A stretch of DNA of 25,741 nt, taken from the NCBI GenBank assembly GCA_043812975.1, contig JBDRLP010000032.1, forward strand, positions 1-25,741, given 5' to 3'. A model generated the notes under the pieces. That model saw only the letters and a program-made list of their open reading frames with translations. It was not told the DNA's origin and ran no database searches. This DNA is from Candidatus Iainarchaeum sp. GTDB lineage: Archaea > Iainarchaeota > Iainarchaeia > Iainarchaeales > Iainarchaeaceae. Positions 13,478 to 17,149 of this stretch are shown here, piece by piece. A program made the position numbers and the translations under genes. Position 1 is the stretch's first letter. Each line of letters begins with the position of its first letter.

Positions 13478-14911
13478 TCAATAAGCTTTTGCAAAATAAA
13501 CCATTTCTTTGGCTTCTTTACCGCACTTCACGCATTTTCCTGAAACATTTTTCTGGTCAAACGGAATGCATCTGGAAGTTGCGGTTGTTTCATCCTTGAT
13601 TTCTTCTTCACAGGAACTTGTATGACAGAACAAAACAAAAACCATTTTCTTATTACTAATTGCTTTTTTGAATTCGCTCCAGTTTTTAGCTTCAACAATA
13701 TTAGCATTCAAAAACTTTTTTGCTTTTTTGAACATGTCAGCGTGCATTTCTTCCAGAATTTCACTGACTCTTATTTTGATGTCTTTTTCCTTGACAAATT
13801 CTTTTTTACCATTGTCTCTTCTGACAACAACCACTTGTTTCTTTTCAAGATCCTTTGGACCAAGTTCTATTCTTACTGGAATTCCTTTTAATTCCCAGTC
13901 ACTGAATTTCCATCCAACGCTGTAATTATCCCGGTTGTCAACAAAAGCATTGACTGATTTTAATTCCTTTTCAAGTCCGGAGCATTTTTTCAGTACTTTT
14001 TCCCTGGTTTTTTCAAACAAAATAGGAACAATAACTGCTTTCTGCTTTGCAATCCTCGGAGGCAACACTAAACCTTTATCATCTCCGTGAACCATTACAA
14101 TAGAACCAATAAGCCTTGTTGAGAATCCCCATGAACTTTGCCAAGGCAATTGTTCCTTGCTTCCCTCATCCAAAAACTTTAATCCAAAACTTTTTGCAAA
14201 ACCCTGCCCAAGATTATGGGATGTTCCCATCTGCAGAGCTTTTCCATCCGGCATTAGTGCTTCAATTGTTGTTGTGTACAAAGCACCTGCAAACTTTTCA
14301 GCATCAGTTTTTACTCCCGAAATAACAGGAACAGCCAATAATTCCTCAACCAGTTTTTTATACTCATTCAAAAATAATCTTACTTCCTTATCACATTCTT
14401 CTTTAGTAGCATAAACACAATGTCCTTCCTGCCACAAAAATTCCCTTGTCCTCAAAAATAATTTTGTCTGCTTTACTTCCCACCTGAGAACATTACACCA
14501 TTGATTTATTCTAAGAGGAAGGTCTCTCCATGAGCGAATCCATTTTGCATAAGAATCATACATAATAGTTTCAGAAGTTGGCCTGATTGCCACTCTTTCC
14601 TCATCATCGTCCTTTTTTTCAATCCACGCAAGTTCAGGCTCAAAACCCTCTGCGTGTTCTGCTTCTTTTTTGAAAAAACTTTCAGGAATCAAAAGCGGAA
14701 AATAAGCATTACTTACTTTGTGCTTGCCAATAGCCTTGTTGAAATAACTCTGGATAGCTTCCCAAAGAGCATAACCGTGCGGCCGAATAATCATAAACCC
14801 CTTTACAGGACCGTAATCAGCTAAACCAGCTTTCTGGACTACTTGATTATACCACTCGCTGAAATCCTCATGCTTTTTGACTGTGATTCCTAATGTTTGT
14901 TCTTCTGCCAT
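13478..14911 (-). CDS. proS: Proline--tRNA ligase, archaeal/eukaryotic type
   Basis: FSEWY, RPTSET, LRTREFLWQEGH, GTSHNLGQ, SWGFSTR, GIPVRIELGPKD, C-terminal Zn-binding region ending FAKAY. Confidence 0.97.
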   Translation of the reverse strand: MAEEQTLGITVKKHEDFSEWYNQVVQKAGLADYGPVKGFMIIRPHGYALWEAIQSYFNKAIGKHKVSNAYFPLLIPESFFKKEAEHAEGFEPELAWIEKKDDDEERVAIRPTSETIMYDSYAKWIRSWRDLPLRINQWCNVLRWEVKQTKLFLRTREFLWQEGHCVYATKEECDKEVRLFLNEYKKLVEELLAVPVISGVKTDAEKFAGALYTTTIEALMPDGKALQMGTSHNLGQGFAKSFGLKFLDEGSKEQLPWQSSWGFSTRLIGSIVMVHGDDKGLVLPPRIAKQKAVIVPILFEKTREKVLKKCSGLEKELKSVNAFVDNRDNYSVGWKFSDWELKGIPVRIELGPKDLEKKQVVVVRRDNGKKEFVKEKDIKIRVSEILEEMHADMFKKAKKFLNANIVEAKNWSEFKKAISNKKMVFVLFCHTSSCEEEIKDETTATSRCIPFDQKNVSGKCVKCGKEAKEMVYFAKAY

Positions 14912-14990: not shown

Positions 14991-15113
14991 TGGGACCAGG
15001 AGGATTTGAACCCCCGTCGTAAGCTGATTCGGAGTCTTTTCCCGAGGGTTTTTTTCCCGTGGAAAAAAAGGCTCTCCCAAAGCTTAAATGCTACCAGACT
15101 ACACCATAGTCCC
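14991..15113 (-). tRNA. tRNA-Pro(UGG) with 50-nt canonical intron (15026-15075); CCA not encoded
   Basis: Acceptor GGGACTA/TGGTCCC+A, D-arm GTGT..GCAT, anticodon stem TAAGC/GCTTA, anticodon TGG at 15079-15077, T-arm GGGGG-TTCAAAT-CCTCC. Intron at 37/38 with BHB: TTTG/CGAA helix, bulges GG|A and TC|A. Confidence 0.95.
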
Positions 15114-15210
15114 ATTCTTGAAACCCATAGTGCCAACGCCAGTGCTAACTGGCATATCGTACCCAACCGACGAAACGGTTGGGCTACACCATAGTCCCAA
15201 ACTCAAGAAT
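15114..15210 (-). ncRNA. Structured RNA element/leader upstream of tRNA-Pro, unknown function
   Basis: Minus-strand hairpins CCCAACCG-TTTCGT-CGGTTGGG and ATGCCAGT-TAGC-ACTGGCGT, enclosed by CTATGGTGT/GCACTATGG and ATTCTTGA/TCAAGAAT stems. G-U pairs favour the minus strand. Confidence 0.55.
15184..15199 (-). repeat. Exact 16-nt direct repeat of the tRNA-Pro 5' end (other copy 15099-15114)
   Basis: CTACACCATAGTCCCA occurs at 15099-15114 and 15184-15199, 85 nt apart. Confidence 0.92.
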
Positions 15211-15225
15211 TTCTGTATGACAAGT

Positions 15226-15233
15226 ATTTTAAA
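15226..15233 (-). promoter_or_regulatory. TATA-like box for the leader+tRNA-Pro transcript
   Basis: TTTAAAAT on the minus strand, about 28-35 nt upstream of G15198. No AT-rich box at the equivalent distance from 15113. Confidence 0.45.
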
Positions 15234-15286: not shown

Positions 15287-17149
15287 ATGGATTTTTCAGA
15301 ATTAGCAGGTTATTTTGATAAAATAGAGAATATTAGTTCCCGCCTTGAAATGACTGTTATTCTGGCAGAATTACTGGAAAAAGCCAAAAAAGATGAAATA
15401 AAACAGATTATTTATCTTTCACAGGGGATTCTGGGGCCTAACCACATTGCACTGGAAGCTGGGTTAGGGGAAGGTTTGATTGAACAGGGTCTTGCTAAAG
15501 CTAATGGTTATTCAAAAGATGAAATAAAAAAAAGCTATAGGGAAATCGGAGACCTTGGTCTGGTAGCAGAAAAATATTCTGAAAAAAAGAAACAACAAGC
15601 ATTATTTTCAGAAAAACTTTCAATAAAAAAAGTATTTGAAAATTTTTTAAAAATGTCAAACCTTGAGGGAAAAGGAAGCCAAGAATCAAAACTCAAAATG
15701 TTTGCGGAACTATTAAACAGTGCTTCACCAAAAGAAGCAAAATACATTGCAAGAATCCCCCTTGGAAATTTAAGGCTTGGAGTTGGCGACCCGACAATAA
15801 TGGATTCACTTGCAACTAATTATTTTTCAGAATTTACAAAGGACAAAAAAATAGTGAAAGAAATTGAAGCAGAATTAAAAGAAAAGAAAGCCGGAGGTAC
15901 TCGTAAGAGTGAAGAAAAAAGGAATGACGAATTTGAAAGAAAAGCAAAAGCAAGAATAAGAAAAATGATTGAAACAAGGTATAATATTCATTCTGATCTT
16001 GGAGCAATAGCAGAAAAACTGAAAGAAAAAGGCCTGAAAGGTCTGGATGAACTGCAGATAAAAGCAGGAACTCCAATAAGGCCAACACTTGCTGAAAGGC
16101 TTCCATCAGCCAAAGAGATTGTGGAAAAAATAGGCAAGTGTATTGTTGAAGCAAAATATGATGGTTTCCGATTACAAGTACATAAGAATAAAAAAGAAGT
16201 AACTATTTTTTCAAGACAAAGTGAGAACATGACTGAAATGTTTCCGGATATAGTTGAAGCGGTAAAGAAACAGATTAAGGCAGATGAAGCAATTTTTGAA
16301 GGAGAAGCACTTGCATTTAATGAAGAAACACAGGAATATTTTCCATTCCAGATTACAATTCAAAGAAGAAGAAAATATGATATTGAAAAAAAAGCTATTG
16401 AATTTCCTTTGAAACTTTTTGTATTTGATATTATGTTCCTTAATGGAACAAACTGGATGGAAAAACCATTCATCGAAAGAAGAAAAAAACTTGAAAGCAT
16501 AATTAAAAAAGGAAATTTGATTGAACCGACAAAAAAGATTTTTACTGATGACCCTGAAAAAATAGAAAAATTCTTTTTAGAAAATGTAGAAAGTGGTTTG
16601 GAGGGGATTATTGCAAAAGACCCGACTGCAAAGTATATTGCCGGAGCCAGAAAGTATGCTTGGATTAAACTAAAAAGAAGTTACAAAGGAGAACTGAACG
16701 ATTCTGTTGATGTTACAATAATAGGTTATTTTGAGGGAAAAGGAAAAAGAACCCAGTTCGGTTTAGGAGGGCTTCTTACTGCAGTTTATGATACTGAAAC
16801 AGATTCCTTCAAATCAGTTGCGAAAATAGGAACAGGAATGACTGAGGAAATCCTTAAAGAACTTGAATCTAAGCTTAGTAAAATAAAGGAAAAAAAGAAG
16901 CCTGCAAGAGTAGATTCAGGAGTAGAACCTGATTTTTGGGTAAAACCAAAATATGTGATTGAAGTTGTTGCTGATGAAATAACCAAAAGCCCAACCCATA
17001 CTGCAGGAAAAGATTCAGGCCAGGGTTATGCACTCAGATTTCCAAGAATGATTAAATTCAGGGAAAAGAAACCAGAAGAATCAACCACTGTAAAAGAAAT
17101 TATCCAGATGTATGAAAAACAAGGTAATGTACAGCTAAAAGATGCTTAA
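15287..17149 (+). CDS. lig: ATP-dependent DNA ligase
   Basis: EAKYDGFRLQVH (motif I), IFSRQ, EGEAL, FVFDIM, EGIIAK, WIKLKRSY, ALRFPRM. Confidence 0.97.
   Translation: MDFSELAGYFDKIENISSRLEMTVILAELLEKAKKDEIKQIIYLSQGILGPNHIALEAGLGEGLIEQGLAKANGYSKDEIKKSYREIGDLGLVAEKYSEKKKQQALFSEKLSIKKVFENFLKMSNLEGKGSQESKLKMFAELLNSASPKEAKYIARIPLGNLRLGVGDPTIMDSLATNYFSEFTKDKKIVKEIEAELKEKKAGGTRKSEEKRNDEFERKAKARIRKMIETRYNIHSDLGAIAEKLKEKGLKGLDELQIKAGTPIRPTLAERLPSAKEIVEKIGKCIVEAKYDGFRLQVHKNKKEVTIFSRQSENMTEMFPDIVEAVKKQIKADEAIFEGEALAFNEETQEYFPFQITIQRRRKYDIEKKAIEFPLKLFVFDIMFLNGTNWMEKPFIERRKKLESIIKKGNLIEPTKKIFTDDPEKIEKFFLENVESGLEGIIAKDPTAKYIAGARKYAWIKLKRSYKGELNDSVDVTIIGYFEGKGKRTQFGLGGLLTAVYDTETDSFKSVAKIGTGMTEEILKELESKLSKIKEKKKPARVDSGVEPDFWVKPKYVIEVVADEITKSPTHTAGKDSGQGYALRFPRMIKFREKKPEESTTVKEIIQMYEKQGNVQLKDA

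Follow-up and report, generated by a model that had tools for sequence, protein, structure and literature searches.

The window analyzed here comprises positions 1 to 25,741 (25,741 nucleotides) of contig JBDRLP010000032.1 from the DPANN archaeon Candidatus Iainarchaeum sp. (assembly GCA_043812975.1, hereafter G000; 1.24 Mb in 68 contigs, 35% G+C, 94.5% complete). On its minus strand lies a tRNA-Pro gene whose 5' end occurs a second time a short distance upstream. We find that this unit is very probably the footprint of a small, non-coding, GC-rich hairpin element, the upstream copy being an orphan produced by duplication of the target. On this reading, a 69-nt element entered the D-loop of tRNA-Pro(UGG) after nucleotide 15-17, duplicating 16 nt (positions -1 to 15). 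The duplication rebuilt a complete tRNA downstream of the element and left an orphan 5' fragment beside the old promoter; transcription would still begin a few bases before the orphan. What is new is that the same element subfamily is found at the same tRNA-Pro D-loop site in two further genomes, and that each of the orphans is predicted to pair best with its own tail.

The repeated 16-mer is present exactly twice, 85 nt apart from start to start. One copy (15099..15114, minus strand, as are all parts of the unit) covers tRNA positions -1 to 15 within the working gene, and the other is the orphan at 15184..15199; none of 100 shuffles gave a match. An exact second copy at this distance had been reported by a sequence-only reading of the window, and the repeat search bears this out. 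The 69 nt between the repeats consist of hairpin 1, a 6-nt linker, hairpin 2, and a 21-nt tail. Hairpin 1 (15162..15183, loop TTTCGT) abuts the orphan directly and is the module that defines the element family. Both hairpins had been described as 8-bp and GC-rich; the arms of hairpin 1 (15176-15183 and 15162-15169) indeed form a perfect 8-bp stem, whereas hairpin 2 (15136..15155, loop TAGC), which is present in every fold, has seven Watson-Crick pairs and one G-U. The linker between them, TACGAT (15156..15161), corresponds to a family consensus of GGGT-R-CG- in the alignment of copies. The tail (15115..15135) begins TGGCACT. It contains GCACTATGG, previously singled out as an antisense to the tRNA 5' end that could pair through G-U pairs. 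This segment belongs to a longer stretch, 15115-15135, which, in the fold of the leader alone, makes 16 pairs, six being G-U, to the upstream copy plus three bases preceding it.

Straddling the boundary of hairpin 2 (its final base) and tail (its initial seven) is TTGGCACT, which is shared with the element of a congener, G004; the middle of the tail differs between the two elements. A third direct copy of the tRNA start, at 15125-15136, was considered as an older duplication. We dropped this idea, since its first eight bases are common to the G004 element, and the stretch is better taken as element sequence. The 8-nt inverted repeat said to bracket the unit is perfect (upstream arm 15203..15210, partner 15114-15121), and its upstream arm probably precedes the transcription start, if that start is placed by its distance from the TATA-like box. 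This box, TTTAAAATA at 15225..15233, lies upstream of the duplicate, as had been claimed; it is 27 nt before the orphan and is the presumed promoter of the whole unit.

Short repeats can be misjoined in metagenome-assembled genomes, so that a layout of this kind might arise when two read populations are fused at the repeat. We give this explanation practically no weight. Among four public DNA runs compared, one short contig covers the unit. This 151-nt contig, from a run (X1) that may be the source sample, spans 15065-15215 with 0 differences and holds both copies and the whole element, although it reaches only 16 nt beyond the upstream copy. As far as contigs can show, the sequence is thus continuous across both repeats. 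Furthermore, the layout was assembled independently in two other genomes, G015 and G004, and in metagenome contigs of 103 kb and 49 kb.

The segment between the repeats belongs to a dispersed family. A BLAST search of the G000 contigs with the leader recovered the hairpin-1 region at five other loci (E 3.3e-5 to 0.0098), all with a second GC-rich hairpin behind hairpin 1. With a hairpin-1 profile (nhmmer, E<1), we counted 22 copies in the genome. Loop and linker are conserved among these copies, and the hairpin 2 module differs from member to member. Three stem positions of hairpin 1 show compensatory changes (C-G 18/A-T 3; A-T 10/C-G 9/T-A 1; C-G 18/A-T 4), and these double-sided changes argue that hairpin 1 itself is maintained. 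The tRNA-Pro copy has the hairpin-1 loop and the GGGT-R-CG linker that characterize the family. Its loop reads TTTCGT instead of TTGCGT, as does that of the copy on contig C63, and the copy on C42 has the close variant TTTCGG. Outside G000, we searched 22 genomes of the same taxonomic family and 18 of other families in the order; hairpin-1 matches were found in 13 of the former and in none of the latter.

Many copies carry flanking duplications of their own. Direct repeats with a score of at least 14 flank nine of the 22 copies; at 300 random sites, the maximum was 13. These repeats are 14-24+ nt long, extending by eye to about 50 nt when mismatches are allowed, and their sequence differs at each copy. 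The upstream repeat always ends where hairpin 1 begins, give or take a few bases, and the other junction is variable. At tRNA-Pro, the upstream copy of the 16-nt repeat ends at the first base of hairpin 1. What is duplicated is target DNA: at protein genes the Shine-Dalgarno sequence with the start codon, at tRNA-Arg the 3' end, and at tRNA-Pro the 5' end. For three of the 22 copies, a tRNA gene is no more than 120 nt away, a space that makes up 0.96% of the genome (P = 0.0012). At one protein gene start codon (C65:2700-2840, locus L002), the family copy is accompanied by a 17-nt duplication. An upstream start there opens a 32-codon frame through the element, with its TGA overlapping the real ATG (ATGA; translated by eye).

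The sequence-only reading had listed a miniature integrated element, or an att scar, at the tRNA 5' end among its candidate roles. The first of these fits a multi-copy family with its own flanking duplications and, as described below, empty sites in congeners; the other copies, the covariation, and the empty sites by which it had proposed to test the idea have all been found. An att scar in the integrase sense (SSV/pNOB8 style), with an integrative element deleted down to 69 nt, is very improbable. Archaeal integrative elements do target tRNA genes and leave partial tRNA duplicates behind, G000 encodes four tyrosine recombinases, and the account of Caldiarchaeum in PMC3293823 describes a 5' tRNA-Thr fragment beside a recombinase-bearing insert. 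However, no recombinase is encoded on the tRNA-Pro contig, and the insert has the same size as other family members, which is not what would be expected of a random deletion remnant. The hairpin module also occurs at 21 other sites, and a flanking repeat that differs at every copy is unlike site-specific recombination.

The statement that the layout matches no described RNA family holds for Rfam. The tRNA was the sole match at gathering score among the Rfam covariance models in the leader region; at E up to 1 across six loci, there were, besides tRNAs, two matches far below the cut-off, both on other loci. The family, or a decoy leader held by a clamp, was found described neither in the full-text literature that we searched (supplements and subscription journals lay outside its scope) nor by a term search in a 2026 preprint on prokaryotic non-coding elements.

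Relatives preserve the site without the insert. We compared G000 with its congeners G003, G005, and G004, and with G015, G008, and G012 from another genus. In G003 and G005, the same start of the neighboring gene and the same TATA box at the same distance are followed by an intact tRNA-Pro without an insert, so that the orthologous site is empty in close relatives. The upstream flank of the G000 orphan aligns with the upstream flank of tRNA-Pro in these two congeners, and the orphan sits at the position, relative to the TATA box, that the tRNA 5' end occupies there. The gene thus formerly began where the orphan now lies, and both the element and a second 5' end were added behind it. By eye, the tRNA-Pro sites of G008 and G012, and that of G007, are also empty.

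Among 12 tRNA-Pro loci of relatives that were displayed (14 had been requested, and two were outside the pattern), only that of G015 has an insert. A pattern search for the layout through 215 genomes of the class found it in three: G000, G015, and G004. The same element subfamily occupies the same D-loop site in all three, with the orphan ending at position 15-17. The G015 insert is at the orthologous tRNA-Pro(UGG); that of G004 is at tRNA-Pro(GGG), and the UGG gene of G004 is bare. The upstream copy is 13/16 identical to the gene copy in G015, where the invariant A14 is lost, and 12/16 identical in G004. At positions 16-17, most relatives read CC, two bases that hairpin 1 could share at its beginning. 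A loose pattern with three N positions, run over genome contigs, returned at least 120 stretches, mostly chance bacterial matches, of which nine were taken as archaeal. When metagenome contigs were scanned for the layout, only the G015 and G004 loci came back, with no further independent case.

Of the elements compared, the one in G015 most resembles a G000 copy that is not at a tRNA (alignment score 37, versus 17.5 to the G000 tRNA-Pro element), and the G000 tRNA-Pro element is closest to the one in tRNA-Pro(GGG) of G004, a different gene. We take these relationships as pointing to repeated independent insertions at one D-loop site. They also bear on the proposal that the leader is a conserved functional part of pre-tRNA-Pro (a folding chaperone, a processing switch, or a proS-linked regulator), with the empty sites representing losses. 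For such a leader, it can be said that the same layout and hairpin-1 subfamily precede tRNA-Pro in 3 of 215 genomes, that the closing stem covaries, and that tRNA-Pro stands directly before proS on the same strand. We nevertheless consider it unlikely. It is absent from most relatives, including four of five sampled congeners (the fifth gave no tRNA-Pro match), and its modules are ordinary members of a family dispersed at protein gene starts, tRNA 3' ends, and in a tRNA intron. Moreover, the three elements are not each other's closest relatives, and the G004 copy is on a different isoacceptor.

How such a unit would be expressed can be gauged from its promoter and its folds. In G000, G004, and G015 alike, the orphan is preceded at 25-27 nt by a TATA-like box, and inspection of the GC-rich element revealed no AT-rich box inside it. 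Because of this arrangement, we infer that pre-tRNA-Pro begins near the orphan and carries a structured 5' leader of roughly 90 nt. The leader would comprise, in order, the orphan, hairpin 1, hairpin 2, and the tail, and would fold co-transcriptionally. Folded alone, it forms a three-way junction of -40.8 kcal/mol, closed by the 16-bp stem (6 G-U) of orphan and tail. This closing stem would prevent the decoy acceptor strand from meeting the true one at the 3' end; on the modeled folds, it could form long before the 3' acceptor strand is made. RNase P would then cleave at the downstream +1, and the splicing endonuclease would excise only the canonical intron.

Of the two mutually exclusive folds put forward by the sequence-only reading, the first, a self-contained leader before a normal pre-tRNA, is likely the working state. 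The TATA box before the upstream copy, the stable leader, and the decay of the upstream copy in two genomes are all in keeping with it. The second fold does not survive in its role as a non-canonical D-loop intron, in which the upstream copy would serve as the real 5' exon and the splicing endonuclease would remove 85 nt, up to where the downstream copy ends. Such an intron would draw on the free-energy minimum, which pairs the upstream copy with the 3' acceptor strand, and on the element-like modules inside the canonical tRNA-Cys intron of G000. Non-canonical tRNA introns are also present in some archaea, as described in PMC4090602. To restore the tRNA, both cuts must fall at equivalent places in two direct repeats, so the central 4 bp of a bulge-helix-bulge would require a 4-mer able to pair with itself. 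Of the 10 possible splice registers, two permit such self-pairing but lack flanking helices, and no register combines the 4-bp helix with a flanking one. A single splicing endonuclease gene is present in the genome; its product, of 169 aa, has an N-terminal and a catalytic domain, one of each. Judged from its sequence, this layout is alpha4-type, a type described in PMC4090602 as strict for canonical bulge-helix-bulge sites. Given also the degraded upstream copies of G015 and G004, we rejected the upstream copy as an exon and regard a second intron as hardly credible.

Besides the single alpha4-type endonuclease, RNase P RNA is encoded, on C12 (97.1 bits, above the cut-off). PIN_5, the HARP family, had no match in the 94.5%-complete assembly. 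In addition to the full copy on C12, the end of another contig holds a partial RNase P RNA match (C22:7438-7569; 42.7 bits, below the cut-off, model positions 36-191).

The pairing of orphan and tail is stronger than expected by chance. In G000, the duplex has a predicted energy of -16.2 kcal/mol, compared with -7.7 +/- 2.3 for shuffles, 0.25% of which were as good. The corresponding duplexes reach -16.6 kcal/mol in G015 (1.5% of shuffles as good) and -18.1 kcal/mol in G004 (1.75%). In a 3x3 swap, the cognate combination had the best orphan value in each row and column, with non-cognate orphans at -5.9 to -14.5. Similarly, when each of the three orphans was set against 21 non-cognate element 3' regions of G000, the cognate value was never reached. 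With the tails of G015 and G004, pairing of the intact gene copy is 5-7 kcal/mol worse than that of the decayed orphan. Since decayed orphans outpair intact copies, the orphans would have drifted toward the tail and not at random. The orphan-tail stem has the look of one selected as a clamp on the decoy acceptor strand, although on these modeled energies we give this about even odds. Such a clamp would be a weaker form of the maturation switch named among the candidate roles.

Pairing between tail and target is not a general property of insertion. Among the nine repeat-flanked copies in G000, it is strong at tRNA-Pro (0.001), marginal at one other (0.033), and lacking at seven (0.15-0.86). It is likewise lacking in six of seven other copies of the same subfamily elsewhere, a test that left out the G000 copy on C42, which is outside the pattern. 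We therefore rejected the idea that the tail guides the element to its target.

Several observations count against the insertion model or against the clamp. No clear flanking repeat was found at 13 of the 22 copies. The whole-unit model, which cannot separate the two folds, slightly prefers the orphan as acceptor strand (-84.3 versus -82.6 kcal/mol, 98% of the ensemble), so that the working fold must come about kinetically or through tRNA tertiary contacts. We infer the transcription start, the leader, and the order of processing alike. The clamp is based on three loci, two of them from one metagenome, and its segments were picked after the folds had been seen; with an orphan-shuffled null and a 70-nt region, the value for G015 is 0.054. 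In a tRNA-Gln leader, where an element of another hairpin family is inserted after position 15, the pairing is not significant (0.345). The G000 copies are 16/16 identical, which suggests a recent event as far as sequence identity can tell, yet the tail already pairs. This combination would call for gene conversion between the copies or for a tail that matched at insertion. Presence in two genera with absence from congeners could also result if a single old insertion had later been lost several times, precisely between its repeats. Finally, no reverse transcriptase (PF00078), Cas1, or Y1 transposase (PF01797) was matched in the 94.5%-complete G000; the four tyrosine recombinases and one TnpB that it does encode are all away from the tRNA-Pro contig.

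How the element moves is a matter on which we can be only tentative. The route that we lean toward, while holding it doubtful in itself, places copy-choice or template switching at genes under heavy transcription, as they are replicated or as breaks in them are repaired. The strand being made would copy an element located elsewhere and then return to its own template 14-50 nt upstream. Staggered cuts by a dedicated nuclease acting in trans are possible too, at a comparably low level of confidence, and a family-specific transposase is about as likely as a host replication or repair route. In our judgment, the host route (copy-choice at stalled forks) is favored by the lack of terminal inverted repeats, by the combination of one sharp and one ragged end, and by the variable duplications. 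It is also favored by the same behavior in unrelated hairpin families and by the liking of the elements for tRNA genes and gene starts. A SINE-like (short interspersed nuclear element-like) retroposon would fit the variable duplication and the single sharp end; as noted, PF00078 was not matched. The notion that the duplication boundaries are RNA ends, and hence that the origin is RNA mediated, was dropped, because the typical length of 14-22 nt and the need for a whole gene explain them.

With one sharp end, no inverted ends, duplications of 14-50 bp, and no recognizable enzyme, the element family fits no described transposition mechanism. It nevertheless shares features with several known systems. 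[quoted passage not shown] Very high MITE densities are reported for some DPANN genomes in PMC11602168, where the definition of MITEs calls for terminal inverted repeats no shorter than 10-15 bp and for 2-10-bp target duplications. In contrast, the only inverted repeat of the tRNA-Pro copy is 8 nt, with one arm in the ancestral flank outside the duplication, and other family copies show no terminal inverted repeats by eye. The duplication is 16 nt at tRNA-Pro and a variable 14-24+ nt at the other eight repeat-flanked copies. The family also differs from REP elements mobilized by REP-associated tyrosine transposases (RAYT), as the Y1 (HUH) transposase family PF01797 had no match in this 94.5%-complete genome.

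Long and variable duplications without recognizable mobile machinery are known from bacterial restriction-modification genes, as "insertion with long target duplication" (Nobusato et al. 2000, cited in PMC2853133), and the account given there has the duplication often overlapping a gene end, as here. Those insertions, as presented in PMC2853133, are kilobase cassettes with repeats of more than 30 bp and up to several hundred, arising as single bacterial events, whereas the insert of the hairpin family is a 45-110-nt non-coding module in dozens of copies. By the same account, no archaeal case passed the screen of Furuta, Abe and Kobayashi 2010 (PMC2853133).

A parallel in arrangement is the tRNA-Thr(GGU) of Caldiarchaeum subterraneum (Sugahara et al. 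2012, PMC3293823), where a 5' tRNA fragment likewise lies upstream of an intact copy with mobile DNA between them. That paper proposes the arrangement as a route to tRNA gene disruption. The insert there is 1.8 kb and encodes a recombinase (PMC3293823), while ours is 69 nt, non-coding, and apparently co-transcribed as a leader. The transposed tRNA introns of Thermoproteales (Fujishima et al. 2010, as summarized in PMC4090602) are also near-identical short structured inserts in unrelated tRNAs, including the D-arm. According to that summary, such similarity suggests intron transposition, by a mechanism not known there. Those introns carry a bulge-helix-bulge and are served by a lenient alpha2beta2 endonuclease (PMC4090602), whereas here there is no such motif, the target is duplicated, and the enzyme is alpha4-type. 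The GC clusters of yeast mitochondria are short GC-rich hairpins that spread in an AT-rich genome with no known enzyme, and their target duplications are only 2-3 bp, compared with 14-24+ nt at repeat-flanked copies of the archaeal family. These clusters, a subject of PMC4478555, belong to a different domain of life and bear no sequence relation to the archaeal family.

Comparable arrangements occur at other tRNA genes. At tRNA-Gln(UUG) (C65:11610-11990, loci L163/L164), a 19-nt duplicate of positions -4 to 15, with one mismatch, stands beside the ancestral promoter. It is followed by a 112-nt insert of a different hairpin family and then by the intact gene; in the congener G005, the site is empty and the promoter region is the same. 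The canonical intron of tRNA-Cys (C7:428-589; intron of 91 nt) holds modules of the tRNA-Pro element family, namely, a GGGTACGA linker and a CCATCTGCGATGG hairpin, so the family also lives inside a spliced intron. A hairpin of purine and pyrimidine tracts (a T/C run, a short loop, and a matching A/G run) recurs at the 5' part of the tRNA-Pro, Gln, Tyr, and Ser(GCU) introns. It is also found directly upstream of tRNA-Cys and tRNA-Ser(GGA) and has many matches in G000 and its relatives. The module CTTGCAGAAT...ATTCTGCGAGG is common to the tRNA-Arg(UCU) intron and the tRNA-Gln leader insert, and a related module lies upstream of tRNA-Ser(GGA).

Other tRNA genes have their 3' ends repeated downstream. 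The duplicate is 20 nt long at tRNA-Val (C27:74848-74920), from the T-loop to position 73, and about 27 nt at tRNA-Arg GCG (C23:17921-17994), where a family element is present in reverse orientation. At tRNA-Asn (C58:9266-9341), a 38-nt near-tandem partial copy of the 3' end follows after 11 nt. In G013 (locus L174), a tRNA-Gln 3' half directly precedes a complete tRNA-Gln gene. ARAGORN also called a tRNA-Glu(CUC) with a 1233-nt 'intron' (C53:4440-5767), which is either a false call or a large tRNA gene insertion.

The intact downstream unit, which had been read as a minus-strand tRNA-Pro, occupies 14991..15113 and matches Rfam RF00005 with 46.4 bits over model positions 1-71. It is divided into exon 1 (15076-15113), an intron (15026-15075), and exon 2 (14991-15025). 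The intron is 50 nt long and at the canonical site, with a boundary ambiguous by 1 nt, and its flanks can form the usual bulge-helix-bulge, as read from the sequence. In its default mode, ARAGORN called no tRNA in the window, because the intron hides the gene. With introns allowed, it labeled the anticodon ggg, a consequence of the two possible placements of the intron boundary. Intron-less relatives have the anticodon loop TTTGGGA, from which the anticodon is TGG and the gene is tRNA-Pro(UGG). A marine metagenome relative of the gene (run X4 record 22, window 15074-15107) has a different GC-rich hairpin, with loop GAGCAG, that overlaps its first four bases; a hairpin with this loop also abuts tRNA-Ser(GCU) in G000.

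Two protein genes flank the unit. The prolyl-tRNA synthetase gene (proS; 13478-14911) is 80 nt downstream of tRNA-Pro on the same minus strand, and the interval contains a T-run and an AT-rich stretch. On the other side, the gene for an ATP-dependent DNA ligase (15287-17149) diverges on the plus strand. The gene described here is the single tRNA-Pro found among 36 tRNAs of the 94.5%-complete assembly. As the sole tRNA-Pro found, it must work despite its duplicated 5' end.

The origin of interrupted archaeal tRNA genes, including odd introns, split genes, and stray fragments, is an old question for which few intermediates have been observed. The tRNA-Pro locus offers one concrete route, in which a tiny non-coding element enters the D-loop while the gene survives thanks to a long duplication of the target. 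The outcome is a promoter-linked 5' fragment and a structured spacer before the only tRNA-Pro found in this genome. The arrangement suggests that a cell can tolerate a pre-tRNA with a decoy acceptor strand, provided that the decoy is kept occupied by pairing. More broadly, we put forward as a speculative possibility that hairpin elements of DPANN archaea repeatedly strike tRNA D-loops (15-17) through host replication or repair and not through a transposase, that the resulting decoy 5' fragments are clamped by selected tails, and that such loci are intermediates on the way to non-canonical introns and split tRNAs. If this were true, each intermediate would have a promoter-bearing orphan 5' piece, followed by a linker with structure of its own and by another 5' end that could decay.

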